DNA of 64,000 nt, taken from assembly GCA_036271335.1 (NCBI GenBank), contig DATBAW010000600.1, positions 5,635-69,634 on the forward strand. Direction: 5' to 3'. Source of the DNA: Thermoanaerobaculia bacterium. GTDB lineage: Bacteria > Acidobacteriota > Thermoanaerobaculia > Multivoradales > UBA5704. The notes beneath the pieces are model-generated. The model did no database searches. It saw only the letters and a list, made by a program, of their open reading frames with translations, and was not told where the DNA came from. The position numbers were made by a program, and so were the translations under genes. Of the stretch, positions 16,968-64,000 are shown one piece after another (positions within the stretch are counted from its first letter, which is position 1; each line of letters opens with the position of its first letter).

Positions 16968-17204
16968 TCAGAGGTCCACGTCCTCGATGGGCCCAAGATC
17001 ATCGATCTCCGGAAACTCCTCGTCGAGAGGCTCCCAAGTCGACAAGAGCTCCAGAAGAGCCGTGCGGGGCATCGGCTCGACGATGAGGCGCTCCCCCTCC
17101 TTGCGGAGAATGGCCTGGCTGCCGGGGAGCTCGAGATCCCGCGGAATGCGAAGGGCCTGGTTGCTGCCATTCCTGAACAGGCGCACGATCCGTTCTGGCT
17201 GCAT
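16968..17204 (-). CDS. vapB: Type II antitoxin VapB (AbrB/SpoVT-type)
   Basis: 78 aa. RLFRNGSNQALRIPRDLELPG is the swapped-hairpin DNA-binding motif. Acidic C-terminus. Immediately upstream of vapC. Confidence 0.8.
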   Translation of the reverse strand: MQPERIVRLFRNGSNQALRIPRDLELPGSQAILRKEGERLIVEPMPRTALLELLSTWEPLDEEFPEIDDLGPIEDVDL

Positions 17205-17312
17205 GACGTCCTCCCTGCCGCCGTCCGAGGCAGCCTATGCTGAAGCATAGGCTAGCACGAAGATTTGCCGGGCGCCATCGCACCTCGGAGCCTGCGCCGC
17301 AGGAAACCAGAA

Positions 17313-17442: not shown

Positions 17443-17979
17443 CTAGCCTCCGTACTGCGCGTGGATGTAGGCGCCCGTCTCCGAGTTGTAGAGCAGATAC
17501 CAGCCGGGATGATCCGGGTCGTCATAGACCACGAAGTCGTCGCCGCAATCCCAGCACCAGTCGACGGCCAGCGGCCAGTCGAAAGGAGCGATCAGGAAGG
17601 CGGAGCCGCCCAGCCAGAAGCGGTGGCTGCCGCGGTCGAAGCGGGAGACCCCATAGCGGTAGGACGGCCCGACGTGGGCGAAGCGCCCGTGCACATTCGG
17701 CTGCGCCACACGGTAGCGCGGATCGTCCGGCCGGTCGTGGCCATACCAGCGGTCATGGTTGACGTGCGGCGCGGCGTTCACCCGTCCACCCTCCCAGCGC
17801 TCCGGCTCCGCCTGCCCGCCTCGCCGCGCCGAGGGCGCCGGCGGCAGGTGGCCCTGGTTGGCGCGGGGATGCGCCTGTTGCCGCGGAGCGGCGCCGTGCT
17901 GCTCGCGCTCGCGCTGGGCGGCCAAGGGAAGCGTCCCCAGGACCGTAAGTGTCACCAACAAAGCGAGATGTTGTTTCAT
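17443..17979 (-). CDS. Secreted hypothetical protein (His/Arg/Trp-rich, C-terminal CWDCGDD motif)
   Basis: ATG at 17979 preceded by AGGAGA. Signal peptide MKQHLALLVTLTVLGTLPLAAQ. No family recognised. Confidence 0.6.
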   Translation of the reverse strand: MKQHLALLVTLTVLGTLPLAAQREREQHGAAPRQQAHPRANQGHLPPAPSARRGGQAEPERWEGGRVNAAPHVNHDRWYGHDRPDDPRYRVAQPNVHGRFAHVGPSYRYGVSRFDRGSHRFWLGGSAFLIAPFDWPLAVDWCWDCGDDFVVYDDPDHPGWYLLYNSETGAYIHAQYGG

Positions 17980-18097
17980 GGCTGTCTCCTTTAGGGGATC
18001 TGGCTGCCGGTTGTACCGGCACTCCAAGCTCTATGCAAACAGCGTGCGGGGGGGATCCTATCTCGCCCTCGACAGGCCCAGGGTCATCGATCCCCAG

Positions 18098-30392: not shown

Positions 30393-30436
30393 CCTGTCCC
30401 GCTTTCCCGCCGATATGTCACAGTAGCAAGTAGCCC
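30393..30436 (+). promoter_or_regulatory. Conserved upstream motif, copy 1 (core ATGTCACAGTAGCAAGT), ~57 nt before metalloprotease 1
   Basis: cctgtcccgctttcccgccgatATGTCACAGTAGCAAGTag aligns with the reverse complement of 37346-37388 (cttgtcccgtttccaggtgattATGTCACAATAGCAAGTgg). Core identity is 17 of 18. Confidence 0.5.
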
Positions 30437-30492
30437 GTGAAGTCTACGGAGATGGCCTTGAATGTTTTGAATCCCTCAAGGAGGGGAACTCT

Positions 30493-33414: not shown

Positions 33415-33424
33415 GGCCCTGACG

Positions 33425-33460
33425 ATACGGCGGCGCCCCGCAAGGGCGCCGTATTTTTTT
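33425..33460 (+). terminator. Rho-independent terminator after metalloprotease 1
   Basis: atacggcggcgccc-cgcaa-gggcgccgtat followed by a T7 run (33454-33460). Confidence 0.8.
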
Positions 33461-33478
33461 AGCCCCTCAAGGAGGGCC

Positions 33479-37457: not shown

Positions 37458-40400
37458 CTACAACCGCGCCGCCGCCGCCCGCCGCTGGAGTTGCAGCACC
37501 ATGACGTCCGGGTCGACGACGATCCGCTCGGGCTCGAAGGCGCAGCGGAGGTGGAGCACCTGGGATTCGCCGGCGCCGAGCACGACCGTGGCCCGGGCGT
37601 CGCGGTAGCCCGGCGCGGCCTTCCCGGCCTCGTCGTACCGGTCTCCCCGCGTGGCGGCCACCGCCACCGGGAAACGGCCGGTGCCGGCGTTGGTCAACTT
37701 GAAGGTGGCCTCCCAGGCTCCCCCGCCCAGCGGCCGCTTCCCCGTCTCCTCGATCTCGTACTCGGGGACGACGGTCTGGAAGAACAGCTGTTGGACGAGA
37801 TCGTCGAAGGCCGCCTTGTCCGCCGCATAGGGGCGCATCACGGCCACGAAGTCCTCGATCACCGGGTGGTCGGGGTTGTTGTGGTAGACCCGGAAGAACT
37901 GCTGGACGCCGGCGAGGAAGGCGTCCTTCCCCATCCGCTGGTAGAGCATCCAGAGCGCCCACCCCCCCTTGTTGTAGATCACCGTCACGTCGCCCGGCCG
38001 GCCGTTGAGCTCGAGGGTCTCGGCCAGCGGCTTCTCGTCGCTCGGCTGGCGGTTCTCGCCGTAGTCGGCCTCGATGGCGGTGGCGAAGGTCTGCCGCGCC
38101 AGGGGGCCCCGCATCTGCTCGAGGAGCATCTGGGTCGCGAAGTGCGCCGCCCCCTCGGCGAGCACGATCCCGCCCGGCCCCTCGCCCGGCGACATGATGT
38201 GCCCCCACCACTGGTGGGCCGACTCGTGGGCGGCGATGGTGAAGGCCACGTCGTTGTCCGGCTGGCGCTCGGCCAGGAAGCCGGTGCCCTCGGAGAAGAA
38301 GATGTTGGTGGCGTTGCCGCGCGCGTAGGACGCGAAGGAGGGGAACTCGTTGAGCCGCAGCTCGCGCCAGGGATAGGGCATGTACCACTGCGCGTAGTAC
38401 CGGCGGGCGCCGTTCAGGGCCTCCAGCAGACTGTCCACGTTGTACGGGTGCCCAGGATAGTAGTAGACGGCGGTTCCGGGCCCGCGCTTCACGGCCCAGT
38501 CGTGGCCGGCGGCCAGGTTGAACACGCGCACCGGGTAGTCGCTCTCCCAGGTGCGCGTGCGGCGGCCGCCCCGCACGGTTTCCGCGGTCAGGACGCCCGT
38601 CGAATTGACGAGGTAGTCGGCCGGCGAGCTGATCCGGATCCTCTGGGTGAAAGCCGAGCGGTCGAGATCGGCGTCGGTGATCCCGTCATAGAAGTGGGGG
38701 GGGTAGATCCGCGGCTCCGAGCGGTTCTCATCGTCGACGCCGATCCCGGGGTCGAAGCCGATCTTGGGCACGAAATCGGGATTGCGGCCGGTGAGGACGG
38801 CGCCCGCCGGGAGCAGGAACTCGCCGAGGGCGAGATCGCCGCCGTTCTTGGAGACGCCGGGCAGGATCGTGCCCCGGTAGCGGAAGCCGAGCCGCACCGA
38901 CGCTCCGGGCGCGAGCGGCCTGGCGAGCCGGAAGACGTAGAGGTGCGAGCGGTCTTCCGGAACCACGGGACGGCCGTCGAGCGTCCACCGGAGCCCCGTC
39001 CACGCCGTGCCGCCGGTGACTGGTAACCAGTAGAGCGGCTGGTCCTTTTCGTTCTTCAGGTCGTAGGAGCCGGCCACCTGGATGCCGCGCGTCTCGGGAT
39101 GGAGGTCGAGGTCCATCTCCACGCGCGTCACGTAGGGGAGCGGCTGGTTGGTCCAGGTGTTGAGGTTCTTCCGCCAGTAGTCCTTGTGCGCCTTCTCCAC
39201 CGCGCCCCCCTGGAAGCCGCGGTTCACCTCTCCCCAGAGCGCGAAGCCGAGCACCAGCGGCGGCAGGGCGAGCGCGGCGGCGGCCGCCAGGGTCCGCCGC
39301 CGCTCCGCCGGCCGGAGCACCGGGTGCAGGCGGTCGCGCTCCCGGCGATTGAGGAAACGGACGGCGATCCAGCCGAACAGGACGGCGAGGGCGAGCATGA
39401 GCAGCCGGTTGAGCACCACCGCCGCGCGATCGAGGCCGAGCGGTCCGAGGTCGGTCCAGGGGATCGCGTAGCCCTCGCGGGTGGCGCCGAGGAGCACCCA
39501 GTTGCCCACCCAGGTCATGTACCCGCGGGAGAACAGGAAGGTGGTCAGGATCGCGGCGCCGATCCCGAGGGCGTAGGTGGCGTAGCGGCTCCGCGTCAGG
39601 GAGTGGACGGCGGCCACGAAGGCGATCCAGACGATCATCGTGGGGGTCAGCAGGAGCCCCCAGACGATCAGGAAGGGACGGAGGTCGAACGCGACCCTCC
39701 CCTGCCCCTCGATCACCTGGAGCGCGACCAGCAGCGTGCCGGCGAGGGCGGCGCCCAGCACCGCGAGGTTGGCCAGCACCTTGCCGGCGATCACCGAGCC
39801 GGTGCGGACGGGGGTCGAGAAGAAGACCGGCGCGGTCCCCGTGGACCCCTCGCGCTCCAGCGATTCGACCGTGTAGAAGAGGAAGAGCAGCCCCAGCGCC
39901 CGGGTCAGGTAGGCCGCCGCCATGACCGCCGCCACGCCCGGAGTCCACAGGATGCCGCTGGCGAGGAACGGATCGCGGGAATCCTTGTAGAGGGTGTGGA
40001 GAAAGATCAGGATGAACGGGATGAAGACGTAGAGGCCCGGCTGCGAGCCCAGCTCCTGGAGCTCGAAGCGGGCGACCGTGAAGATTCCCGAGAGGACGCC
40101 GGGCGCGCGCCCCGCCATCGCCAGGGCGGCGAGCGGCCGGTCTCCCGGCAGCGCCGTCGCGACCGTGGTCACGGGCGCGGCCGGCGTCCCGGCCGTCCGC
40201 GAGCGGGCCGGGCGGCGCAGACGGCCGCTGAAGTGGCGGCGAGAGAGGTCCACGAACAGCAACCCCACGAGGACCAGGCCGGCCCGGCTCAGCAGGAAGG
40301 GCGTGTCGTAGCGGATCGGCCGGGTGTTGTAGAAGGCGATCCCGCGATCCACCAGCAGCCACCTCTCCTTGAGCCAGCGGAAGCCCGAGGGGTCGAGGTA

Positions 40401-41120
40401 GCGCAGGACGTCCGACAGCCCCGCGCTGATCCGTGGCGGGTAGGTCGACCAGAGCCAGCCGTTGCAGATCAGGAAGACGATCACCGGAAACAGGAAGACG
40501 AGGATCGGCCGCCCCGTCCAGCGGCCGATCGCGAAGCTCACCCCCGCCGTGAAGACCACCGCCGGCAGCAGGAAGATCAGGGTCGGCCGGACGTAGGCGA
40601 AGAGATGAAAGGGGCCGTAGATCTCGGGAGCGCCGGCGTCCGGCAGGACGTGGGTGAGCACCCCGGTGCTCAACGGCAGCACCAGCACCACCCCCAGGCT
40701 GGCCGCCACGGCGGCGAGGAACTTCCCCCACACGTATTCGCCCGGCCGCAGCGGCGTCGAGTGCAGCAGGTCGCCGATCCGGCTCTCGGCGTCGCGGATC
40801 AGCGGCATGCCGGAGGCGATCGCGACCAGGAACGCGATCATGTAGAAACCGATCAGCGCGTACACGTAGGCGGTCTGGAACTCGGAATCGGTCCAGGCCC
40901 GGTTGCCCCCCAGCGAGGTGTTGATCGAACGGAGGATCCACGAGCCGCGGGACATCCACCAGCCGTTCAGGGCCATGAACAGCGCGAAGATCAGGAACAG
41001 CGGCCGGCGGAAGCTCTCCTTGAGATCGAGCCCGGCGACCAGGCCGAGACGGCGGACGCTGAAGCCCGCCGCCGGGAGCGGCGAGGGCCGGGCGGCGGTG
41101 GAGGACGGCGGGCGTTCCAT
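37458..41120 (-). CDS. Fusion protein: ABC-2-type multi-pass permease (N-terminal ~640 aa) plus M1-family aminopeptidase-like domain (C-terminal ~580 aa)
   Basis: About 12 hydrophobic helices in the N-terminal half. The C-terminal half carries the gluzincin motif AAHESAHQWWGH...LAEG (HEXXH plus a distal Glu). AGGAGA RBS, 17 nt after the upstream PP2C gene stop. Confidence 0.75.
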   Translation of the reverse strand: MERPPSSTAARPSPLPAAGFSVRRLGLVAGLDLKESFRRPLFLIFALFMALNGWWMSRGSWILRSINTSLGGNRAWTDSEFQTAYVYALIGFYMIAFLVAIASGMPLIRDAESRIGDLLHSTPLRPGEYVWGKFLAAVAASLGVVLVLPLSTGVLTHVLPDAGAPEIYGPFHLFAYVRPTLIFLLPAVVFTAGVSFAIGRWTGRPILVFLFPVIVFLICNGWLWSTYPPRISAGLSDVLRYLDPSGFRWLKERWLLVDRGIAFYNTRPIRYDTPFLLSRAGLVLVGLLFVDLSRRHFSGRLRRPARSRTAGTPAAPVTTVATALPGDRPLAALAMAGRAPGVLSGIFTVARFELQELGSQPGLYVFIPFILIFLHTLYKDSRDPFLASGILWTPGVAAVMAAAYLTRALGLLFLFYTVESLEREGSTGTAPVFFSTPVRTGSVIAGKVLANLAVLGAALAGTLLVALQVIEGQGRVAFDLRPFLIVWGLLLTPTMIVWIAFVAAVHSLTRSRYATYALGIGAAILTTFLFSRGYMTWVGNWVLLGATREGYAIPWTDLGPLGLDRAAVVLNRLLMLALAVLFGWIAVRFLNRRERDRLHPVLRPAERRRTLAAAAALALPPLVLGFALWGEVNRGFQGGAVEKAHKDYWRKNLNTWTNQPLPYVTRVEMDLDLHPETRGIQVAGSYDLKNEKDQPLYWLPVTGGTAWTGLRWTLDGRPVVPEDRSHLYVFRLARPLAPGASVRLGFRYRGTILPGVSKNGGDLALGEFLLPAGAVLTGRNPDFVPKIGFDPGIGVDDENRSEPRIYPPHFYDGITDADLDRSAFTQRIRISSPADYLVNSTGVLTAETVRGGRRTRTWESDYPVRVFNLAAGHDWAVKRGPGTAVYYYPGHPYNVDSLLEALNGARRYYAQWYMPYPWRELRLNEFPSFASYARGNATNIFFSEGTGFLAERQPDNDVAFTIAAHESAHQWWGHIMSPGEGPGGIVLAEGAAHFATQMLLEQMRGPLARQTFATAIEADYGENRQPSDEKPLAETLELNGRPGDVTVIYNKGGWALWMLYQRMGKDAFLAGVQQFFRVYHNNPDHPVIEDFVAVMRPYAADKAAFDDLVQQLFFQTVVPEYEIEETGKRPLGGGAWEATFKLTNAGTGRFPVAVAATRGDRYDEAGKAAPGYRDARATVVLGAGESQVLHLRCAFEPERIVVDPDVMVLQLQRRAAAARL

Positions 41121-41137
41121 GGCTGAGTCTCCTGCGT

Positions 41138-43267
41138 TCAGACGAGGCGGATGACGACCAGCGTCACGTCGTCCTTCGGAGGATCCCCCGCCGTCCAGGC
41201 CTCCGCGGCGCGGCCGAGGCCGGCGATCACCTCCGCCGGCGTGCCCCCTCCGAGCTCCGCGAAGAGCGCGCGGACCCGCGGATAGCCGAGCGGATCGCCG
41301 TCGGCGTTCGTCAGCTCCGGGAGGCCGTCGGTCATCATCAGGATCGCGTCGCCGGGCGCCAGGTCGACGCGATGCTCCTGGTAGGAGGTAGCCAAGCCGC
41401 CGAGCGGCATGCCCTGGAGGACGATCTCCTCCGCCTCGCCGGTCTTGCCGTGGTAGATGAGGACGGGGGGCATGCCGGCCGACGAGAGGGTGAGCACACC
41501 CGCGGACAGCCGGCCCACGCAGAGCCCCATGGCCATGCGGCTCAGGTCCATGCGGCGGACGGCGCGGGCCGCTTCGTCGAGCAGCTCCCGGGGGCCGGTG
41601 TGGCCGGCGAAGGCCGAGAACAGGCTCTTGACGGCGGTGACCATGGTGCCCGCCCGCGCGCCATGGCCGGTGGCGTCGCCGATCGCGGCGGTGAGCGCGC
41701 CGTCCCCGGCGGGGTGGAAATCCCCCTCGGAGAGATGGAAATCCCCCTCGGAGAGATGGAAATCATAGTAGTCGCCTCCCACCTCGGTCGCCGTGCGCAT
41801 CGAGACGGCGATCTCGAACCCGGGGTGCTCGGGGAGGGTCTTGGGGAGCAGCGAGAGCTGGAACCGGCGCGCCTCCTCCAGCTCTTCGCTCTTGCGGTCG
41901 TACTCGGCCTGCAGCCGTTCCTGCTCGATCTCCTGGTGCTGGCGCTGCCGTTCCTGCTCCAGGAGGCGGTCCTGGTTCACCCGCAGGTCGCCGGCCATCT
42001 GGTTGAAGGCCAGGGCGAGCTTGCCGAACTCGTTGCGCGACCGCACCGGCACCCGGGTGTCGAGGTCCCCGTGGGCGATCCGCTCGGCGCCGTCGGTCAC
42101 CAGCTTCAGGTTGCGGGTCATGCGGGTCGACAGCGGCAGGATGCCGAGGAGCGCGAGGCCGATCATCCCCAGGCCGTAGCCGAAGTTGCGCGCCGCCGTG
42201 TGCCGCACCTCGGCAAGCGGCACCGGCCGGGCGATGCCGAAGATGAGGTCGCTCTCGCGGTCCTTGGCCGTCGCCACCACCCAGTCGCCGAGGACCCAGC
42301 GGACGGCGCCGGCGTGCTGGTGGACGGAGAGCGCGAGCGGCAGCTTCTCGACCTTGGCCTGGTCCGCCTGGTCGAGGGTGTGGAGCTTGCCCTGGGCATC
42401 GACGGCGAACGGCACCTCCCCTTCCCCGCCGCGGGTATGGGCGAGGACTCGCGCCAGCAGCTCGTCGCCGCGCACCCGCGCCTTGATCGTCCCCACGACC
42501 GCGCCCCGGTCGTGCACCGGCACCTCGAGGTCGCGGCCGAGCAGCGCGCGGTCGGCCGCGACCTCGGCCCGCTCCCTCTGCTTATCGGCCCTCTCCTGCT
42601 GCTTCTCGGCCTCCACCGTGAGCTTCTCCTGGACGCGCCGGCGGACCTCCTGTTTCCAGGCTTCCGTGCCCACGCCGGGAGGGCGCGGGGGCGGCGCCAC
42701 GGGGGGCGGGCTGCCGAGGCTCGCGATCGCCTGATCGATCGCCTGGGTGGAGACCGGGTCGTTGGCGACGTCCTTGCGCGCTTCCTGAAGGTACTGCGCG
42801 ACGTCGATCGTCATCGGGCTGCCGGGCTCCGGAACGCCCGGGATGCCGGTGGCGACCGGGGGGGTGGGCGGAACGGGCACCGCGGGCACTGCGGGCACTT
42901 CCGCCAGGGCGGCCTTCGCGGCCGGCGGCATGGGGATGAACTCGAGCGATTTGACGAGCGGCGCCGCGTCGCCGAAGTTGCGGACCATCTGACCCAGCAG
43001 CGGCGCCGCCTTCCCCTGCTGGCGCGACTGGGCCGCCGCCATCAGGTCCTGGGCGGAGACGTCCCCCAGCCGCTCGACCCCTCGTCCCAGCTCCCTGCGG
43101 ATCGCAGCCAGCCGGCCATCCATCTCCCCCGCCAGCGCCTTCGCCTCGGTCTCCGAAGCATGGCGCACGGCCCGCAGCGACGAGACGTAGGAATAGAGGA
43201 CGATCCCCGTCAGCGGCACCACCGCCAGCAGCAGGAAGGCGAGGACGAGCTGGGTGCGGATCTTCAT
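41138..43267 (-). CDS. Membrane sensor with HAMP domain and PP2C/SpoIIE-type serine phosphatase output
   Basis: N-terminal TM helix, periplasmic region, second TM helix, HAMP (GAERIAHGDLDTRVPVRSRNEFGKLALAFNQMAGDL), coiled coil, then PP2C motifs GGDYYDF, IGDATGHG and MMTDGLPE. Confidence 0.85.
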   Translation of the reverse strand: MKIRTQLVLAFLLLAVVPLTGIVLYSYVSSLRAVRHASETEAKALAGEMDGRLAAIRRELGRGVERLGDVSAQDLMAAAQSRQQGKAAPLLGQMVRNFGDAAPLVKSLEFIPMPPAAKAALAEVPAVPAVPVPPTPPVATGIPGVPEPGSPMTIDVAQYLQEARKDVANDPVSTQAIDQAIASLGSPPPVAPPPRPPGVGTEAWKQEVRRRVQEKLTVEAEKQQERADKQRERAEVAADRALLGRDLEVPVHDRGAVVGTIKARVRGDELLARVLAHTRGGEGEVPFAVDAQGKLHTLDQADQAKVEKLPLALSVHQHAGAVRWVLGDWVVATAKDRESDLIFGIARPVPLAEVRHTAARNFGYGLGMIGLALLGILPLSTRMTRNLKLVTDGAERIAHGDLDTRVPVRSRNEFGKLALAFNQMAGDLRVNQDRLLEQERQRQHQEIEQERLQAEYDRKSEELEEARRFQLSLLPKTLPEHPGFEIAVSMRTATEVGGDYYDFHLSEGDFHLSEGDFHPAGDGALTAAIGDATGHGARAGTMVTAVKSLFSAFAGHTGPRELLDEAARAVRRMDLSRMAMGLCVGRLSAGVLTLSSAGMPPVLIYHGKTGEAEEIVLQGMPLGGLATSYQEHRVDLAPGDAILMMTDGLPELTNADGDPLGYPRVRALFAELGGGTPAEVIAGLGRAAEAWTAGDPPKDDVTLVVIRLV
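41714..41766. repeat. In-frame 21-bp tandem duplication (about 2.5 copies) inside the PP2C domain
   Basis: (g/a)tggaaatccccctcggagag is repeated, encoding DFHLSEG-DFHLSEG-DFH immediately after the GGDYYDF metal-binding motif. Confidence 0.9.
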
Positions 43268-48313: not shown

Positions 48314-50236
48314 TCAGAAGCGCCATGTCACTTTCCCGTAGACGCTGCGCTGGATCTCCTGGCGCAGGGGCGACGGCGGACCGAACTCGGGATGCCGGGG
48401 GTGCAGCAGGTTCTCGCCGGTGAGCGAGAGCTCCAGCCTGTCCGTGGCGCTCCAGCCGAGCCGCAGGTCGAGCTCGGTATAGGCCGGCACGGCCGGCGAC
48501 GGCAGGCTGGCCACGTAGTGCAGCGTGCCGTCGAGCTCGACCCGGCCGGGAAGGTCCATCAGCGAACGCAGGACGAAGCGGTCGAGCGGATCGTTCCCCT
48601 CCATCTTGCCGCCGGTCGGATCGAAGCTCTGGGGATCGAGGCTCAGCGACTTGCCGAAATAGGCGTACTCGGCGTGCAGCCGCCACCAGGGGGCCGCCTG
48701 GGCGCTCACCCGCAGCTCCGCGCCCCAGGTGTCGGCGCTCAGCTCGTTGCCGAAATGGTAGGGGAACGCCGCCGGAGGCGCCGCGGGCTCATAGCTGCGC
48801 AGATGGTCGTAGACGTTGTAGTAGGTCGCCAGGTCGACCGTCAGGCCCGTCCGCACCTGCATGCGGTAGCCGAGCTCGTAGGCGAGCAGCTCCTCGGAGA
48901 CGAAGGCGTTCGAGCCTTCGAGAAACGGCTGGCCCGTGGCGGAGTAGAAGACGATGTCCTCGTCGTAGCGGGTGGGCGTGCGGACGGCGCGGGAGATCGC
49001 CGCCCAGAGGGTGCGGCGGTCGTCGGGCACCCAGCTCAGGCGGACGCTCGGCTGCACCTCGAACCCCGTCCAGTGGTTGTGCTCGACCTTCGTCCCCGCC
49101 GTCAGCTTCAGATGGTGCTCGAGCGCGATCTCGTCCTGGGCGAAGGCGCTGAACAGGTTCTCGGTCACCTGGTCGGGGAGGAACGCCACGCCCGGGCTGT
49201 TCCCCACCTCGTCCTGCGTGATCCGGTAGCCCGCTCCCCAGACCAGCTCCTGCCGCGAGCCCAGCGGGCTGCGATGCTGATAGTCGACGTCGAAGGTGTG
49301 GCGATGCTCCTCGAACCAGTCGGGGATCTCACGGTGGGTGAAGTCATAGTAGATCTGCAGGTCGCTGCCGGAATTGGCGGCGTACGTGGTGGTCCAGCGG
49401 CCGAGGACATTGGCGCCGTCGAGCACGGTGTCGGCGCGCTCCACCACCGTCTGGCCGGCGAGCCCGTGGTAGGCGTCGCCCTGGAGCGTGAAGGCGCCGG
49501 AGCCGCCGTCGGCGCGGTCGATCCGGAACCCCGCCTGCCCGTGGCGCAGCGGATCCTGGGCGCTGTCGCCGTCGGCGAAGGCGAGCGCGTCCTGGTAGGA
49601 GTACTGGCCATAGGCGCGATAGGCGAGGTTGTCGCCGATCTTCCCCCCCTCGCGGAAGGCGGCCGTGGCCTCCTGCTGATTGCCGCCGCCGATCGAGACC
49701 AGCGTCCCCTGGGTGTCCCGCGCGCTCTTGGTGAGGATGTTGATCACGCCGTTGACCGCGTTCGCCCCCCAGAGAGTGGCGCCGGGACCGCGGATGATCT
49801 CGATGCGGTCGATGTCCTCCAGCATCACGCCCTGGACGTCCCAGAACACCCCGGAATAGAGCGGCGTGTAGACGCTGCGGCCGTCGATCAGCACCAGCAG
49901 CTTGTTGGAGGTGGTGGTGTTGAAGCCGCGGGAGCTGATCGCCCAGGTGTTGCCGTCGGATTGAGCCACCTCCAGGCCGGCGGTGATCCGCAGCACGTCC
50001 GGCAGGTTGGTGGCGCCGGAGCGGCGGACGTCCTCGGCGGTGAGGACGGTGATCGCCGCCGCCGCGCCCGAGACCGGCTCGCTACGGCGGGAGACCGAGG
50101 TCACGTCGAGGTCCATCAGCTGCTCGATCGAGAGCCCCTTCAGCTCCAGAGGCCCCGAGGCCTGAGGCTGCTCCTTCTGCGCGTACGCCGGCGCCGCCAT
50201 GGCGAGCGCCACGCAGAGGGCGGCCAGGCTTCCCAC
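48314..50236 (-). CDS. TonB-dependent outer-membrane receptor
   Basis: Plug domain VTSVSRR.E....AAAAITVLTAEDVRRSGATNLPDVLR, IEIIRGPGATLWGANAVNGVINI, terminal aromatic ...YGKVTWRF. The start is uncertain: GTG at 50236 gives the signal peptide VGSLAALCVALAMAAPAYAQ, while the track ORF runs on to 50422 through REP family F. Confidence 0.85.
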   Translation of the reverse strand: MGSLAALCVALAMAAPAYAQKEQPQASGPLELKGLSIEQLMDLDVTSVSRRSEPVSGAAAAITVLTAEDVRRSGATNLPDVLRITAGLEVAQSDGNTWAISSRGFNTTTSNKLLVLIDGRSVYTPLYSGVFWDVQGVMLEDIDRIEIIRGPGATLWGANAVNGVINILTKSARDTQGTLVSIGGGNQQEATAAFREGGKIGDNLAYRAYGQYSYQDALAFADGDSAQDPLRHGQAGFRIDRADGGSGAFTLQGDAYHGLAGQTVVERADTVLDGANVLGRWTTTYAANSGSDLQIYYDFTHREIPDWFEEHRHTFDVDYQHRSPLGSRQELVWGAGYRITQDEVGNSPGVAFLPDQVTENLFSAFAQDEIALEHHLKLTAGTKVEHNHWTGFEVQPSVRLSWVPDDRRTLWAAISRAVRTPTRYDEDIVFYSATGQPFLEGSNAFVSEELLAYELGYRMQVRTGLTVDLATYYNVYDHLRSYEPAAPPAAFPYHFGNELSADTWGAELRVSAQAAPWWRLHAEYAYFGKSLSLDPQSFDPTGGKMEGNDPLDRFVLRSLMDLPGRVELDGTLHYVASLPSPAVPAYTELDLRLGWSATDRLELSLTGENLLHPRHPEFGPPSPLRQEIQRSVYGKVTWRF

Positions 50237-50359
50237 TGTAGAGACGCCCCGTGGGGCGTCTCCGCGGCGGAGATAACGGCTCAGCCGCCCCAACGACCCG
50301 GCGCCGGTCACCGAGGACCGCCGCTTCGGAGACGCCCCACGGGGCGTCTCTACAGTGGG
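50232..50359. repeat. REP family F: 32-bp perfect inverted repeat, 64-bp spacer
   Basis: cccactgtagagacgccccgtggggcgtctcc (50232-50263) and its exact reverse complement (50328-50359). Each arm contains the palindrome gagacgcccc-gtggggcgtctc. Confidence 0.9.
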
Positions 50360-50381
50360 GGGGCACTTTCCAGATACCTTC

Positions 50382-50780
50382 TTAGGCATTTGCGCCCTCC
50401 GCCAGCAGGCGGCGCAGCTCATCGAGGTCGGCCGGCTTGGTCAGGTGGGTGTCGAAACCCGCCTCCTGGGCCCGCCGGCGGTCCTCTTCCTGGCCGTAGC
50501 CGGTGAGCGCGATGAGATAGGCCGACCGCAGCTCGGGGTCGGCGCGGAAGGAGCGGGCGACGGCATAGCCGTCGAGCTGGCCGGGGAGCCCGATGTCGCA
50601 GAGGACGACCTCGGGCCGGAAGCCGCGCGCCTTCTCCACTCCCTCGACGCCGTCATAGGCGACCTCGGCCTCGTGGCCGATGAGCTGCAACAGCAGGCTC
50701 AGACTCTCGGCCGCGTCGACGTTGTCCTCGATGATCAGGCAGCGACGGAGCTTTTCCGTACCTGCGGCAGGATCAGCCAT
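50382..50780 (-). CDS. Single-domain response regulator (REC)
   Basis: CLIIEDNVDAAE, VLCDIGLPGQLDG, IALTGYG, HLTKP. Confidence 0.9.
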   Translation of the reverse strand: MADPAAGTEKLRRCLIIEDNVDAAESLSLLLQLIGHEAEVAYDGVEGVEKARGFRPEVVLCDIGLPGQLDGYAVARSFRADPELRSAYLIALTGYGQEEDRRRAQEAGFDTHLTKPADLDELRRLLAEGANA

Positions 50781-51721: not shown

Positions 51722-52165
51722 ATGCTCAAGGAATTCAAGGAGTTCGCGGTCAAAGGCAACGTCCTCGACCTGGCGATCGGGGTGATCATCGGCGCCGCCT
51801 TCGGCAAGATCGTCACCTCGCTGGTGGAGGACATCATCATGCCGCCGGTCGGTCTGTTCCTCGGCCACGTCGACTTCTCGAACCTCTTCCTCAATCTGTC
51901 CGACAAGCCGTACGACAGCGTCGCCAAGGCCAAGGCCGCCGGCGCGCCGACGCTCAACTACGGCATCTTCCTCAACAACGTGCTGAGCTTCCTGATCGTG
52001 GCCTTCGTCGTCTTCCTGATCGTCCGCGCCGTCAACCGGATGCGCCGCGGCGAGGAGAAGCCGGCGGCGGTGCCCGTGGTCAAGGAGTGCCCCTACTGCT
52101 TCTCACCGATCCCGATCAAGGCCACCCGCTGCCCGCAGTGCACGTCGGAGCTCAGGGCCGCGTAG
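51722..52165 (+). CDS. mscL: Large-conductance mechanosensitive channel
   Basis: [44 protein letters not shown] is the canonical MscL N-terminus. GAGGAGAG RBS. Unusual C-terminal CPYC...CPQC zinc-ribbon-like tail. Confidence 0.92.
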
Positions 52166-52209: not shown

Positions 52210-52285
52210 GGGCCGTTAGCTCAGTTGGTAGAGCAGCGGACTTTTAATCCGCGGGTCTAGGGTTCGAGTCCCTAACGGCCCACCA
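52210..52285 (+). tRNA. tRNA-Lys (anticodon UUU), CCA encoded
   Basis: GGGCCGTTAGCTCAGTTGGTAGAGCAGCGGACTTTTAATCCGCGGGTCTAGGGTTCGAGTCCCTAACGGCCCACCA. Acceptor GGGCCGT/ACGGCCC, anticodon loop CTTTTAA. Confidence 0.93.
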
Positions 52286-52432: not shown

Positions 52433-55400
52433 TCAGCGGTCTCTTTCCGAGCGTTGTGAGGCCTGCAAAGCCGTCTTGAGCTCTGCGGCCAGAGTCCGGA
52501 CATAGGGCTCGTAAACCAGCTCGCGGTGAGGACCCGGCACGGGCCGGACCTCCACGCCACCCGCAGCCAGCTCGCGCCAGCGCGTGACCCTCTCTTCGGC
52601 ATCGCCTTCGTCCTCGGCCTGGAAGAAGGTGATCTGCCCCTGATAAAGGCGCGGCACATACGACCCCACAAGGGTGCCGTTCATCTTGATGATGCGCAGG
52701 ACCTCCCGGGCGGCTTCCAGGTCGTAGTCCCCCGGGAGCGCGCCGGACCTCTTGCCCAGCTCGATGACGTAGCGCAGCCGCCCCTCCGAACCCAAATCCT
52801 CCAGCTCCTCGCGCGAGAGGCCAATTCGGTCTCCCAGCAGCTCGCGCAGGATCAGGGCCTCGTCGAGGGATACCGGCTTGCGGCTCTCCGCCTCGGGTGC
52901 CCGGGTGTCGAAGAGCGCCAGAAGTCCGACCTCCTCACCGCGCTCTGCGAGTTGCCGCGCGATCTCGAAGGCGATCACTCCGCCGAAGGACCAGCCCGCC
53001 AGCAGGTAGGGCGGACGCGGCTGGACGGTCCGCAGAGCCTCCAGATAGACGGTGGCCATCTCCTCCAGGCTGCCGTATAGCCGCTCCTGACCGACCAGGT
53101 GCAGCGCGTCGAGGCCGTACAGAGGCTGGTCCTGGCCGAGATGGCTGGCGAGAGGCTGATAGCAGAGGGCGCTTCCCCCCAGCGGATGGACGCAGAAGAG
53201 TGGAGGTAAGGCGCCCCTCGGCTGGAGGGGCAGCAGCGGCGTGCGGACCATCCCGTCGCCCGGCTTTCGCCGCAGTCGCTGGGCCAGGGCGGCGACGGTC
53301 GGCTCTGCCAGCAGCTCCGCTACCGAGAGTGCCCCCCCGAGCCGCTTCTCGACGCGGGTCAGGAGCGGCAGCACCAGGAGGGAATGACCGCCGAGGTTGA
53401 AGAAATCGTCCTCCACACCGACCGGCCGCACTCCCAGGATCTCCTCCCAGATTCCGATCAGATCGAGCTCAATCGCATCCCGGGCCATGACATACCTGCC
53501 GGCCAGGGCCGGCCGCTCGCCGGCAGGGGCCGGAAGCGCGGTCCGATCGAGCTTGCCGTTCACGGTAAGCGGCAGAGCCGCGAGCTCCACGAAGGCGGAT
53601 GGCACCATCGCGGCCGGCAGCCGGCCGCGCAGGAAAGCGACCAGCTCCTCCACGGCAGGCCCACCCGGGCCAGCGGGCACCCAGTAAGCGACGAGCCGCT
53701 TCTCCCCGGCGGGCTCCTCGCGGGCGACGACCGCCGCCTCGCGGATCCCTGGGTGCTCGCGAAGCGCCCGATCCACCTCTGCCGGCTCGACGCGGAGGCC
53801 GCGGATCTTTACCTGATCGTCGAGCCGGCCAAGGATTTCGAGCAGCCCGTCGAAGCCGTAGCGTCCGCGATCGCCGGTCCGGTAGAGGAGGTCGCTCGGA
53901 TCGTCGCGGAAGGGGTTGCGCAGGAAACGCCGAGCTTCCTCCGCGCCAGGGTCGAGATATCCCAAAGTGCGGAAAGGGGTGCGCAGCACGATCTCACCGG
54001 GCTCGCCGAGGCCGCAGGGCCGGCCTTCCTCCGAGAGCACGAGGGCCTGGGTCTCGGGCAGAGGCGAACCCACGGGCTGGATGCCGGACCGGGGCTCCGC
54101 CGGCACGCGGTACCAGCATTTGGCCAGGGTGGTCTCGGTCGGGCCGTAGAGGTTGATCACCTCCGCGGGCCTCCCGAAAGCCGCGTCCCAAGCCGCCACC
54201 AGATCGGAGGTCAGCGGCTCACCGGCGAAGAAGACGCAGCGCAGGGCGTCGAGGACGACCGCGGGAGAGGCTGCCAGCCAGACGCGGGCGAGCGAGGGCA
54301 CCGTATGGAGCAGCGTGATCCGCTCCCGACGGAGCCAGGCGGGCGTGCCGGGTGAGGCGGCCTCATCGTCCGGACCCGGCAGGCAGACGGTGGCGCCGGC
54401 GGTCAGCGGCGTGAAGAGGTCGCGCAGTACGACGTCGAAGGAAAGCCCGGTGAGCTGGGCCGACCGGTCGCCAGGCCCCACCGCGAAGGTGCGGCGCTGC
54501 CAGGCGAGGAAATGGCTCAGGCCCTTGTGGCGCCCGAGGACGCCCTTAGGCAGGCCGGTGGTGCCGGAAGTGAAGAAGACGTAGACCGGATCGTCGGGGA
54601 GCGGCTCGGCCAGAGCGGCCGGGGGGCCTTCTCCGGCCATTCCGAGCGGCAGTCCGGTGTCCGGCTCGATGTCCAGCGGCTCGATGTCCAGAAGCCCGAT
54701 CGGCCGGTCCGGGACTGGTTGATCCGCGCCTCCCACGCGGATCAACCAGCGCGCGCCGGACTGCCGCAGCATGAGCTCCCGCCGTTCGGCGGGTAGGCGT
54801 GGATCGAGCAGGAGGAGCACGCCACCGGCGCGGGTCACGCCGAAGGCGGCGGCGATGAGACCGAAGCTGCGCGGCCCGGCCACCGCCGCCACCTCGCCCG
54901 GCGCCAACCCCCGGGATCGCAGCAGGCCTGCCAACGTCGCCGAGCTCGCCGCCAATTCGCGATACGTCCAGGCGCGCCCTCCCTGCTCCACCGCCGGTTG
55001 TTCCGGCAGCCGCCCGGCGATCTCCACGAAGGCGGCGAGCCAGGAAGGGATGACCGGCTCCGGGATCGCCACCGCCGGATCGGGCAGCAGGGCGCCGGCC
55101 TCGGGAGTGATCAAAGAGAGCTTGGCGAGCGGGAGTTCCGGGCTCTCGGCCATCTGCTCCAGCAGGGTCTGGAGCTGGCCGAGCAGCTCGCCCACAGCGC
55201 GCGGCGAAAAACGGCGGCGGTCGTACCGGAGCTTCAGACCCAAGCGGGCTCCGGGATTGGCGACCAGGGTCAGTGGGTAGCCGGTCCGCGAACGGATGCG
55301 GTGGGCGCCCAGCCTCAGCGCCCCGCCGCCGCGGGCCTCTTCGGCGGTCCCGAGGGGATAGCTCTCGAAGACGACGAGACTCTCGAACAGCGGTATTCCA

Positions 55401-58400
55401 CGGGGAACATCGCTCCACCCCTGCACCTCCACCAGCGAGCTGTGCTCCAGCTGCCGCAGCTCCGTCAGGCGCGCCTGGAGCGCCGTGAGCCACGGCAGTA
55501 CGAGGCCCACGACGGGCGGCACCCGCACCGGCAGGGTGTTGAGGAAGAGCCCGGTCATGGTCTCGATCCCGGCCAGGTCCGGCGGTCTTCCGGAGACCAC
55601 TTCGCCGAAGAGGACCTCCGGCTCACCGCTGAGGCGGCCGAGGAGGACGCCCCAGGCACCCTGGACGATCGACCCAAGGGTGAGCCGGTGACCCTGTGCC
55701 AGCGTCTGGAGGGATGCCGTGGCTCGCTTTCGCATCCAGAGCTCGAGATCGCCATAGAGTTCGCCGGCCGGGAGCCCGGAGAGCACCGGACGGTCGACCG
55801 GCAGCGGCGTCGGGACGGTAATTCCCGCCAGCTCCCGCCGCCAGAAGGCCTCCGCACTCGCAGCGTCCTGACGGCGAAGCCAGTCGATGTACTCGCGGAA
55901 GGGGCGCGGACGCGGCAGGTCGAGGTCAAGTCTCTCCCGGCTGGCTTGGTAGAGCGCGAAGGCCTCCTGAAAGAGGAGAGGCATCGACCAGCCGTCGAGC
56001 AGCACGTGATGATGGTTCCAGACCAATTGATGGAGGTCGTCCTCCAGCCGGAAGAGGTGGACCCGGAGCAGCGGTGCGGAAGAGAAGTCGAACCCGCGCT
56101 CACTGGACTCTCGCAGGAAGCTCTCCAACCGCGCCTCCCGCCCGGCGGCGGGCAGGCCGCGCCAGTCCTCGTATTGGAAGGGCAATCGGACCTGGCGGAG
56201 CACGACCTGAACCGGCTCGTCGAGGATCTCCCAGTCGAAGGCTGTGCGCAGGACGGGGTGACGCTCGACCACCTGCTGCCACGCCGCAATGAAGGCCCCG
56301 AGGTCGAGGCTCCCCTCGATCTCACAGCTCAACTGTTCGACGTAGGTTCCCGAGCCCGGCTCCTGGAGCGAACGCAGGAGCATTCCCTGCTGCATCGGGG
56401 AGACCGGGTAGATGTCCTCGATCCGCTCTTTGCCGTGAGTAAACCTGGCGATCAGCCGGTCGAGCTGACCTTGGTCCGCCCGGATCAGCGGAAAATCGGA
56501 CGGGGTGAAGACGTCCGCCGTCTCCTCACGCCCCTGGGCGATGAGAGCGCGAAGCTCGGCCAGGTAGCTGGCGGCCAGGGTCTCGATCGTGCTCCGCCGG
56601 TACTGGTCGCGGCTGTAGCGCCACTGGAAGCGGAGCTGCCCTCCCGCGACCAGGCCGCTGATCTCCAGGCGGTGTTGGCGCTTCCAATCACCGGAGCGGA
56701 CCGAGCCGGCGCTCTCGCCGGCGGCAGTGAGCAGCGCGCCGGCAGAGCTCCCCTGATCGAACTGGCCGAGGTAGTTGAAGCTCACCTCCGGCCGCGGTAG
56801 CGCGGCGAGGAGAGTCGCCGCGCCGCCCATATGGCGCAGCAGGCCATAGCTCAGGCCGTTCTGGGGTACGGCCCGGAGCTGCTCCTTGACCGCCTTCAGG
56901 GCGTCTCTGGCCTCGATCGCTCCGTCGAGATCCAGGAAGACCGGAAAGATGCTGGTGAACCAGCCAACGGTGCGCGAGAGGTCGACGTCGTCGAAGAGAT
57001 CCTCCCGTCCGTGTCCTTCCAACTCGACGAGGAGCGATCGCTCCCCGGTCCAGGCGGCAAAGGCGCGCGCCAGGGCGGTCAGCAGGACCTCGTTGACACG
57101 CGTGCGGTAGGCCGCAGGGATCTCGTGCAGGAGCGCCTGCGTCTCCCCGGCCTCCAACAGCGACGATACCGTCTCGGTCGAGGTCTCACTGCCGTCGTCG
57201 GCCGCCGCCGGAAAGTCGAGCGGCAGGTGAGCCCCCGGCCGGGGGGGGATGCCCGCCCAGAAGCCGAGCTCCCTTTGCACGGCGTCGGTGCCGGCATACA
57301 CGGTCAGGCGCTCCGCCCAACGCTGGAACGAGGCGGTCCGAGGCGGCAGCCGGGGCTCCTCGCCGCGCTCCCAGAGCTCGTAAGCCGCTTGGAGATCCTC
57401 GACCAGGAGGCGCCACGACACGCCATCGATCGCCAGATGGTGGACGAGGAACAGGAGCCGCTGCGGCTCGCCCGACCCAACCTCGAAGAGGACGACCCGG
57501 AGCAGCGGCCCGCCGGCGAGGTCGAGGCTGTGCTGCGCTGCGGCCGACGCCGCCTCGATTCCGGCACTCCGCCGATCGGGAGGCAGGGCCGACAGGTCGA
57601 GGGCGGTGAAGGGCGCGGGCCCTCCCGGGGCGCCGGTCTCCTGGAGCCACGCGCCGGCGTGGCGCCGGAAGCGCAGCCGCAGCGCGGGATGATGCCACAG
57701 CAGGGTGTCCACCGCCCGCGCCAAGGCACCGGCGGCGAGCGGACGCCGCAGCGCGAAGAGGACCGCTTGGTTGAAATGGTGCGGCTCGGCGAGAGCGGCC
57801 TCGAAGAACCAGCGCTGGATCGGCGTGAGCGGCACCGGCCCCGGAGCCGGTTCGGGCTCGACACCGGACGGTCCAACAGCCTCGGCGGCGGCCAGCAACT
57901 CGGCGATGGTCTGGTGCTGGAAGAGCTGCTTCGGGGTGAAGTGCAACCCCTGCTGGCGGGCGCGGGCGACGATCTGGATGCTCAGGATCGAATCGCCCCC
58001 CAGCGCGAAGAAGTTGTCCTCGATCCCCACCCGGTCGGCGCGCAGCACCTCCGCCCAGATCGCGGCCAGCACCCGCTCCCGGGGCGTCTGTGCGGGAACG
58101 AAGCTCTGCGGCGCCGCGAACCGCTCGCCGCCCAAGCGCGAGAGCGCCTGGCGGTCGACCTTGCCGGCGAGGGTCCGGGGCAGGGCCTCTACACGCTCGA
58201 AGGTGGCGGGGATCATCGCCTGGGGCAAGCGCTGTTGCAGGTGTGAGGTGATATCGCCTGCCGTCAGCTGCGCACCAGGGACCGCGACGACGTAGGCGAT
58301 CAGACGGCGCTCGCCGCTCTCCCCCGCCGGGGCCAGGACCACCGCCTCGGCGACCTCCGGGTGCTGGCCCAGGGCGGCCTCGATCTCCCCTAGCTCGATG

Positions 58401-61400
58401 CGGATGCCGCGAATCTTGACCTGATGGTCGATACGGCCCAGGAAGATGATGCTGCCGTCGGCCCGGCTGAGCGCGAGGTCGCCGGTGCGGTAGATGCGCG
58501 CGCCGGGGTCGGCGCTGGCCGGATGGGGTACAAAGCGGCCGGCGGTCCGCTCCGGCTGCCCGAGATAGCCGCGCGCCAGCCCGGCCCCTGCGATGCAGAG
58601 CTCCCCGGGCACGCCGATGGGAGCCAGCCGGAGGTCCCGGTCGAGGATGAGGACCTGCTTGTTCGACATCGGCCGGCCAATCGGCACCGGGTCGAGCCCC
58701 TCTCCCGGCCGGCAGCTCCACAGGGTAGCGTCGATGGCCGCCTCGGTCGGACCGTAGACGTTGTGCAGCGTGGCCGCTGACAGTGCGGTAAAGCGGTCGC
58801 GAACCGCCGGCGGCAGGGCCTCTCCGCCGGTGAAGACGTGGCGCAGGTGGACCGTGCGCGCGAAGTCCGGATGCTCCAGGAGCGCCCGCAGGAACGACGG
58901 GGGGAAGTCGGTGACGGTAACCCCCTGGTCGGCCATCAGGCCGAGCAGGGACGCAGGGTCGCGGTGGAGGTCAGGGCTCGGCAGGACGAGCCGCGCGCCG
59001 CTCCCAAGGGCACCGAAGATCTGCCAGATCGAGGGATCGAACGAGAACGGGATGTTCTGCAGGATACGGTCGGAGCGGTCGAGGGCGAACGCCCGCAGCC
59101 GCCAGCGCAGGGTGTTGACGATCTCCCCGTGCGGGACCATCACCCCAAGCGGCTGGCCGGTCGAGCCCGAGGTGTAGAGGACGTAGGCCAGGTGGCCGGG
59201 CCCCACTCCGCTCGCCAGCGCGGCGTCGCCGTGACGGGAGATCTGCGCGGCGTCGCGATCGAGCCGCACGGTCTTTCCACTGAACGGCGGGAGGGCCGCC
59301 ACCAGCGGCTCCACCGTGATCAGCACAGGCACCCGCGCCTCATCGAGGATGGCGGCGAGGCGTTCGCGCGGGTGCTCGACATCGAGCGGGACATAGGCGC
59401 CGCCGGCTTTGAGAATTCCCAGGATACCGACCAGCATCTCCGGCGAGCGGCGAACCGCGAGGCCGACCGGGACGTCGGGGCCCACCTCCAGCGATCGCAA
59501 ATGATGGGCGAGCCGGTTGGCCTCCGCCTCCAGCCGGCCATAGGTCCACGAACGCTCCTCGCAGACCAGGGCGACGGCCTCTTGGGTCTCGCCTGCCTGC
59601 ACCTCGAAGAGCTGATGCAGGCACCCTTCGGACGCCAGCGCGGGGAAGGCCTCGGCGGTGTCGTTCCACTCCGTCAGGAGCTGATGCCTTTCCGGCGCGG
59701 TCAACAGCGGCAACGCCGAAAGCGGCCGCTCCGGCTGGCGGACGACCGCTGCCAGCAGGCAGTGCAGGTGCTCCAGCAGCCGCTGGACCGTGCTGGCGTC
59801 GAAAAGGTCCGTCGCGTAGTCGGCGAGCACGAAGAGGCCCCCGCCGGTGTCGGTTGCCGACAGCGTGAGGTCGAAGCGCGCCGCGGGCGCCTCGTCCGGC
59901 AGCCGGGAGAGGCGCAGATCCGGCAGCTCCGTCTCGCCCTGCGAGGCGGCGTTCTGCAGGATGATCATCAATTGGAATACAGGGTTGTAGGCCAGGCTAC
60001 GCTCCGGCTGCAGGCTCTCGACCAGCTTTTCGAACGGCAGCTCCTGGTGGACGTACCCCTCCAGCAACACCGATCGCAGCCGGGAGACCAGCTCCGCGAA
60101 CCGCGGGTCGCCGCCGAGATCCGTGCGCAACACCAGCGAATTGACGAAGAACCCGATCAGCCCCTCGACCTCCACGCGGCCCCGATTGGCGACCGGCGTA
60201 CCGACCACCAGATCGTCCCGCCCCGAGGCGCGCCGCAGCAGCACCTGGAAAGCGGCGAGTAGAACCATGAACAGGGTCGCTCCGGAGCGGTGGGCGAGCG
60301 CGGTCAGCTCCTGGGCAAGCGCCGCCGGCAGGAGTGTCGACACTCGGGTGCCGCGGAAGCTCTGGATTGCCGGGCGCGGCCGGTCGCCCGGCAGCTCGGT
60401 CAGCGCCGGAGCGCCAGCCAGCCGCCGGCGCCACCAGGACACCTCCGCGTCCAGCGCCTCACCCCGCAGCCACCCCCGCTGCCAGGCGGCGAAGTCCGCG
60501 TACTGGATCTCGAGCTCAGAGAACGGCGAGGGCGCGCCGCTGGTGAAGGCGCGGTAGAGCGCCGCCATCTCGCGGATCAGGATGCCGATCGACCAGGCGT
60601 CCGCCACGATGTGGTGCACGGTAAGGAGGAGGGCGTGCTCACCGAAGCCGAGGCGGACGAGGAGGGCGCGCAGCAGCGGCGGGCGCGCCAAGTCGAACGG
60701 CGCGTCAGCAGCCGCGCGGCCGAGCCGCCGCACCGCCGCCTCCCGTAGCCCGGGCTCCAGCTCGTAGAGATCGACCACCGGCAGGCCGGGTCGCGCCTCC
60801 GGATGGATCACCTGATGGGCGCGGCCGCCGACAGTCTCGAACCCGGTCCGCAGGACCTCGTGGCGCCGCACGACCTCGCCGAGGGAGCGGGCGAGGGCGC
60901 CGGCGTCGAGGCGGCCGGTCAGCCGGACGCCGGTCTGGACGTTGTAGAGCGGGCTCCCCGGCTCGAGCTGATCGAGGAACCAGAGCCGCTCCTGGGAGAA
61001 CGAGAGTGGGATCTCTCCCTGGCGAGGCACCGCCCGCAGAGGTGGCGCGGCGCTGCCGGCCCCCTCGCGGACGAGGTCTTCGACCCGAGCCCCCAGGGCC
61101 TCGATCGTAGGCCGCTCGAACAGCTCGTGGAGCGGCAGCTCGATCCCGAAAGTCCGCCGGACGCGGGAGATCACCTGGGTGGCTAGCAGCGAGTGGCCGC
61201 CAAGGGCGAAGAAGCTCTCGCCGGTGCCGATCCGATCACGGCGCAGCACCTCGCACCAGATCCCTGCCAGCACCTCCTCGAATGGTGTCCGGGGGGACAT
61301 GAGGGCCTCCCTTCCCTCCAGCCGGGCACACTCCGGCTCGGGCAGGGCGCGGCGGTCGACTTTGCCGTTGGCGGTCAGCGGCAGGCGCTCAAGGGGGACG

Positions 61401-64000: not shown

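Follow-up and report, generated by a model that had tools for sequence, protein, structure and literature searches.

Terminal three modules of a non-ribosomal peptide synthetase from an uncultured Acidobacteriota bacterium, with two adenylation domains of identical DxRH-type code

We analysed a stretch of 64,000 nucleotides (hereafter the window) from a Thermoanaerobaculia bacterium of the phylum Acidobacteriota (GenBank assembly GCA_036271335.1, contig DATBAW010000600.1, positions 5,635 to 69,634 of the forward strand), at one end of which lies a large gene for a non-ribosomal peptide synthetase (NRPS). On the minus strand, positions 52433-64000 form a single open frame of 3855 visible codons without an internal stop, which ends with a TGA at 52433-52435 and is still open at 64000, where the window edge cuts the first domain at its N-terminal side. 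The GC content of this frame is 0.87 at third codon positions and 0.50 at second positions, in DNA of roughly 70% GC; this difference is far beyond chance and indicates that the minus-strand frame is the true coding frame. The base composition of the region is the same as that of the remaining window. We also considered the possibility of a pseudogene and rejected it, because the frame holds no stops and its divergence from the ortholog described below is spread over the codon positions as expected for coding sequence under selection. The gene is thus intact and encodes the three final modules of an assembly line for a non-ribosomal peptide in an uncultured, soil-type member of the Acidobacteriota. 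A first-pass annotation made from the sequence had proposed such a single large frame with three terminal modules, and the open frame, the Pfam matches, the motifs and the codon signature all agree with it.

The domain order was mapped with Pfam and phmmer, using the window's own domains as queries. Pfam found four Condensation stretches (1091.7 bits in total), three AMP-binding domains (755.6 bits) with three AMP-binding_C domains, three PP-binding domains and one Thioesterase (PF00975, 110.6 bits), and both methods together gave an order of eleven domains, C1(partial)-A1-T1-C2-A2-T2-E-C3-A3-T3-TE. All of them are on the minus strand. The first module comprises the cut condensation (C) domain C1 (63011-64000, residues 1-330 of the visible protein), the adenylation (A) domain A1 (61301-62863, residues 380-900, with the P-loop TSGTTALPK) and the carrier (T) domain T1 (61076-61288, residues 905-975), whose phosphopantetheine serine is encoded at 61190-61192. 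The second module consists of C2 (59675-61021, residues 994-1442, with the motif LSFSQERLWFL), A2 (58151-59608, residues 1465-1950), T2 (57866-58087, residues 1972-2045, serine at 57989-57991) and an epimerization (E) domain (56471-57838, residues 2055-2510). The third is made up of C3 (55121-56428, residues 2525-2960, with YPVSPMQQGML), A3 (53501-55033, residues 2990-3500), T3 (53261-53479, residues 3508-3580, serine at 53381-53383) and a thioesterase (TE) domain (52511-53206, residues 3599-3830).

The motifs of the individual domains confirmed most of what had been read in the first pass, namely the order C-A-T / C-A-T-E / C-A-T-TE, three phosphopantetheine sites (GGHSL at residue 934, the variant GGDSI at residue 2001, and GGHSL at residue 3537) and a GWSFGG thioesterase motif (residue 3669). 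The four histidine boxes were also located where expected, as HHLLIDGW at residue 60 in C1, HHIVADAW at residue 1129 in C2, HHLAIDGVS at residue 2187 in the E domain and HHVLLDGW at residue 2664 in C3, but not all of them are of the HHxxxDG form, since C2 has HHxxxDA, and the pattern HH[LV]LLDGW proposed for the outer C domains fits C3 and misses C1 by one residue. The Asp-Ala of C2 is retained in the ortholog, and the Gly of the HHxxxDG motif is known to be variable (PMC1894796). Each module contains the A5, A7, A8 and A10 motifs together with GG[HD]S, as expected of a modular (type I) NRPS. The TE domain, in addition to its PF00975 match, aligned with the AB3403 TE from end to end and has the candidate catalytic triad in the expected arrangement (the GWSFGG serine at 52988-52990, an aspartate in FDT at residue 3697 and a histidine in GPH at residue 3823), which places it among type I thioesterases. 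The E domain carries PIQRWF, HHLAIDGVS, EGHGRE, RTVGWFT and FNYLG, and the solved structures that match it best are without exception E domains (PvdL with 402 bits, and TycB, TycA and GrsA with 260-290 bits).

The three C domains fall into two kinds. The identity between C1 and C3 is 51%, against 38% between C1 and C2 and 32.5% between C2 and C3. Among solved structures, C3 scored best with C domains that act behind an E domain, i.e. the N-terminal C domain of McyB (400 bits) and the PvdL C domain that follows its E domain (325 bits), followed by BacC, TycB1 (246 bits) and SrfA-C (243 bits), and it reached 85 bits with the LCL domain TycC6. For C2 the ranking was reversed, with Txo2 (375 bits), Txo1 (370 bits) and TycC6 (250 bits) ahead of McyB (126 bits) and TycB1 (103 bits). 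As a test independent of these scores, all C, E and T domains of 85 fetched genomic and metagenomic loci were annotated, and the domain standing before each C domain was recorded. Domains like C1 and C3 were preceded by E in 44 cases and by T in 14, whereas those like C2 were preceded by T in all 68 cases and by E in none (Fisher p = 5e-22); for C1, 32 of its 44 genomic relatives carry an E domain directly upstream. In the window itself, C3 stands directly behind E and C2 behind T without an E domain, and C1 is found behind an E-terminated protein in the ortholog only. Dual E/C domains carry a second, N-terminal histidine motif, HH[I/L]xxxxGD (PMC1894796); this motif is found nowhere in the protein, and C3 has MLLRSL in its place, so a dual E/C identity of C1 and C3 was rejected. 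From the solved relatives, the adjacency counts and the missing dual motif, we assign C1 and C3 to the DCL type and C2 to the LCL type, in line with the earlier suggestion that C1 and C3 accept a D-residue and differ from C2.

The sole close relative that we found of the whole gene is on a 2.09-Mb contig of a metagenome-assembled genome of an uncultured Acidobacteriota bacterium (locus L004; 88% identity over the query). It has the same eleven-domain order and 86.4% amino acid identity overall, and the identities at the three codon positions (91/93/76%) point to purifying selection on the gene. The L004 gene starts with a GTG located 92 codons ahead of the first visible residue in the window, where it overlaps with the stop codon TGA of the gene before it (GTGA). 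The preceding protein ends in ...A-T-E. Read from the edge of the locus, it shows a PKS (polyketide synthase) post-AT-like motif (LPTYPFERQRFW), T, a heterocyclisation (Cy) domain with FPLTEVQQAYWVGR and DFLLGDAWS, A, T, E, a DCL-like C domain, A, T and E, and the codes of its two A domains are DLWNLSLIWK (Cys-like) and DVWHVSLVEK (Ser-like). The combination of a PKS post-AT-like motif, Cy, a Cys-like A domain and E in this upstream protein (L004 1-9728, plus strand) was noted in passing; from the Cy-A-T-E arrangement one would expect a thiazoline-forming module with epimerisation, followed by a D-Ser module. The C1-like domain lies 85-150 codons past an in-frame stop, i.e. at the N-terminus of a protein, in most of the 44 genomic relatives. 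Because the L004 gene starts only 92 codons further on, at a GTG that overlaps the upstream stop, orthology supports a trimodular subunit of roughly 3950 residues, with the earlier modules on a separate upstream protein, rather than the tail of a giant reading frame. The gene does pass 64000, as had been anticipated, but the rest of the larger assembly line would be found on a separate protein. The upstream partner is predicted by orthology to have the architecture PKS remnant-T-Cy-A-T-E-C-A-T-E. The E domain postulated ahead of C1, outside the window, finds its counterpart in the T-E end of the L004 partner, which suggests that C1 takes its donor in trans. No closer copy was found in protein searches, in which the best non-orthologous matches were fragments of 49-61% identity; a metagenome scan gave nothing above 55% identity, and an exact-protein look-up of the neighbouring MscL matched solely contigs of 1-3 kb.

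To compare the A domains, the ten Stachelhaus positions were located by aligning the domains on their A4, A5 and A10 motifs. Control loci treated in the same way gave the textbook codes DAWTIAAVCK, DVQFIAHVVK, DFWNIGMVHK, DILQLGLIWK, DVWHVSLVDK and DLFNNALTYK of Phe, Pro, Thr, Gly, Ser and Ala-type domains. A1 and A3, which are 60.5% identical, have the same code, DVRHFALLAK, both in the window and in L004, and modules 1 and 3 are therefore predicted to load the same residue, X. The chain end X - D-Y - X given by the first-pass annotation thus holds literally, over all ten code positions. The 120 database sequences most closely related to A1 have 48-61% identity with it and are distributed over Acidobacteriota, Chloroflexi, cyanobacteria, Myxococcota, Planctomycetota, Nitrospirota and other groups. 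Nearly all of these 120 have a code of the family D/E-x-R-H-x-x-L/F-x-x-K, the quartet [DEN]xR[HN] at code positions 235-278 is present in 117 of them, exactly DVRHFALLAK occurs in 50 and DPRHLALLAK in one, and the motif HKGLSHFL is common to the group. With Arg239 and His278 in their codes and nearest relatives that share these codes, A1 and A3 belong, as judged from sequence, to a large, widespread and conserved DxRH clade of A domains that has been little studied biochemically. From relatives of A1 that include P0163 (locus L089) and P0183 (locus L090), we also observed that members of this clade often occur as a stand-alone A-T-TE protein just behind a stand-alone C protein, i.e. as a split terminal module, and elsewhere as a loading A-T, behind which lie a JmjC/cupin gene and a PKS-NRPS. 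Since many of the relatives carry a TE domain, the clade may favour terminal positions.

DxRH codes are also those of Lys2, McyB-A2 and McyE, which are omega-carboxyl-activating domains, a point that a full-text search did not confirm; the same literature search returned nothing for the codes DVRHFALLAK and DPWDFGVIDK. The only member of the clade with a known product that we found is the A domain of the loading module of Zmn16, from the zeamine/prezeamine (and fabclavine) pathway. Its code, DPRHLALLAK, was initially predicted to specify 2-aminoadipate by NRPSpredictor (PMC3547906), and the structure of prezeamine subsequently identified the residue that it installs as 'gamma-aspartate', i.e. 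a side-chain-linked Asp (PMC5811116). This code agrees with that of A1 and A3 at eight of ten positions, including Arg239 and His278. The likeness is one of code: the line of Zmn16-A1 is gammaproteobacterial and the domain is part of its loading module, whereas A1 and A3 belong to two elongation modules, one of them the terminal module, and each follows a DCL domain. Given this code family, with the prezeamine residue as its reference, we predict with moderate confidence that X is an amino acid of the Asp type, either acidic or an amide, which may be activated at its side-chain carboxyl and iso-linked.

The A2 code is DPWDFGVIDK (DPWDFGAIDK in L004). It matches the published Arg-type consensus at six of ten positions, and the Glu/Gln code DAQDLGVVDK also at six, or at seven when Ile and Val at position 330 are counted as a match. 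No substrate could be assigned from the A2 code, and by analogy we describe Y as a probably polar residue with a long side chain.

On the TE side, the NRPS gene is bordered by a tRNA-Lys(UUU) gene (52210-52285, plus strand) directly past its stop, which marks the edge of the cluster, and by mscL (51722-52165, plus strand, 147 residues), which is convergent with it and lies outside the cluster. Past mscL there are an open reading frame of 145 residues without a family match, a tRNA-Leu gene, a response regulator, a TonB-dependent receptor (48314-50422) and histidine kinases. The NRPS gene is therefore the last biosynthetic gene on this side. A second biosynthetic locus, unrelated to the NRPS, was noticed at 18695-22048 (minus strand), where a reading frame of 1117 residues combines DUF4135 (401 bits) with LANC_like (212 bits), as in class II lanthipeptide synthetases (LanM); small frames with high third-position GC beside it, at 18431-18694, 17443-18030 and 16968-17234 (all minus strand), could encode precursor peptides. 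Two reading frames of about 1000 residues each, also high in third-position GC and without a Pfam family, were found at 30427-33414 and 33356-36397 (both plus strand), within a stretch of strongly negative GC skew at 32-36 kb; an 89-nt 'tRNA-Trp' reported by ARAGORN inside one of them (34363-34451, minus strand) is probably spurious. At 37458-41762 (minus strand), a frame of 1434 residues joins ABC-2 type transporter membrane regions to Peptidase_M1, an unusual fusion.

Taken together, the protein is very probably the last subunit (about 3950 residues, three modules) of a multi-protein thiotemplate line that would operate in the following way. C1, as a DCL domain, would take a peptidyl chain with a terminal D-residue from the E-terminated upstream protein and couple it to X, loaded on T1 by A1. 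The LCL domain C2 would then add Y, loaded on T2 by A2, and the E domain would convert Y to its D form. C3, again a DCL domain, would add a second X, loaded on T3 by A3, and the TE domain would free the chain, either by hydrolysis or with cyclisation. What X and Y are, and how the chain is released, is suggested by analogy only. Several observations weigh against the scheme. The E-terminated partner and the position of the start codon come from the single ortholog L004, because no closer copy was found in the collections searched; the substrate calls depend on ten-residue codes; the P-loop of A1 has Ala in place of Gly, a change kept in L004 and not seen elsewhere in the clade; a search of all six frames of the window, which does not reach the upstream part of the cluster, gave no MbtH-like motif; and no phosphopantetheinyl transferase or dedicated exporter was found among the window reading frames scanned with Pfam. 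The P-loop of A2 and the published assignments of related codes, both discussed below, point in the same direction.

Other explanations may be considered for the gene and for its second module. With a frame still open at the window edge, and C1 cut there some 92 residues into the domain, we could also be looking at the tail of one giant multi-module gene that runs many modules past 64000; however, the 86%-identical L004 gene starts just 92 codons upstream, at the GTG that overlaps the preceding TGA, and most of the 44 genomic relatives have a C1-like domain 85-150 codons past an in-frame stop, so that we consider a giant gene very improbable. As regards module 2, the P-loop of A2 (residues 1610-1619) reads TSGSTGQPLG instead of the usual ...PKG, and ...RPQG in L004; the residue in place of the Lys also differs between the two orthologs. 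The Lys is kept in 180 of 181 pattern-matched P-loops of the fetched loci, and the only exception is the A2 ortholog of L004. Without this Lys, module 2 may load poorly or need help, and it could in principle be crippled and skipped, or loaded in trans, with a product that departs from the collinear prediction. Against this, A2 is the best-conserved A domain between the window and L004 (88.5% amino acid identity), it retains all other core motifs (NVYGPTE, YRTGD, GRIDHQVKIRG and the A10 Lys) and its code is conserved save for one position. Because of this conservation A2 is probably active, and we regard a crippled module as unlikely.

Another alternative concerns X. A close code, DPRHVSLLAK, is placed under Asn-activating domains in a published compilation (PMC12283262), and together with the 2-aminoadipate originally predicted for the Zmn16-A1 code (PMC3547906) it argues for an ordinary alpha-linked Asn, Asp, Glu or 2-aminoadipate rather than a side-chain-linked residue. 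Such an X has a serious chance, a little short of even, set against the fact that a side-chain-linked Asp, that of prezeamine (PMC5811116), was the only residue verified by structure that we found in this code family. A metallophore was also considered as the product, with the TonB-dependent receptor as its uptake system: this receptor has Plug and barrel domains and lies about 2 kb beyond the TE domain, the Cy domain and the Cys-like A domain of the L004 upstream protein would make a thiazoline, and a side-chain-linked Asp would leave alpha-carboxylates free. However, two tRNA genes, the convergent mscL, a small reading frame and a response regulator separate the receptor from the NRPS gene, and no other siderophore-type genes were present among the scanned frames, which makes this uptake model rather unlikely. 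If the DxRH clade does activate the side-chain carboxyl of an Asp-type residue, the product may end in isoAsp - D-Y - isoAsp behind a thiazoline-containing, PKS-primed part, and would then represent a new scaffold, possibly a metallophore; this proposal, drawn from analogy, is possible but doubtful.

The domains of the subunit resemble several known systems. The best solved relatives of C3 are the N-terminal C domain of McyB (PDB 8hlk) and the E-C didomain of PvdL (PDB 9lcp), the latter being the best match of the E domain as well; this likeness is confined to the domains, and the McyB and PvdL assembly lines, their substrates and their organisms are unrelated to the present ones. C2 is closest to the C domains of the teixobactin synthetases Txo1 and Txo2 and to TycC6, an LCL domain, and differs from them in having HHxxxDA for HHxxxDG. 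No characterised product or named cluster matched the window NRPS. The closest setting is that of the hybrid PKS-NRPS clusters of uncultured soil Acidobacteriota, to which phylum the nearest genome, that of L004, also belongs. Large NRPS and PKS clusters are widely reported from soil metagenomes, and uncultured soil Acidobacteriota are rich in them; to our knowledge, almost no non-ribosomal products have been characterised from this phylum.

By sequence, every domain is a clear member of an established family and the collinear logic of the line is that of the textbook, so the window NRPS leaves the current understanding of NRPS enzymology unchallenged; its less common feature is that two of the three A domains come from a little-studied clade, which is thus used twice in one protein. 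The locus enlarges by one the set of uncharacterised PKS-NRPS hybrid lines known from uncultured Acidobacteriota. The predicted collinear chain, ...D-aa / X - D-Y - X with release by the TE domain, and the identical DxRH codes of modules 1 and 3 would offer genome mining a concrete target for synthesis or heterologous expression, and the regiochemistry of the abundant DxRH clade of A domains appears worth biochemical testing.

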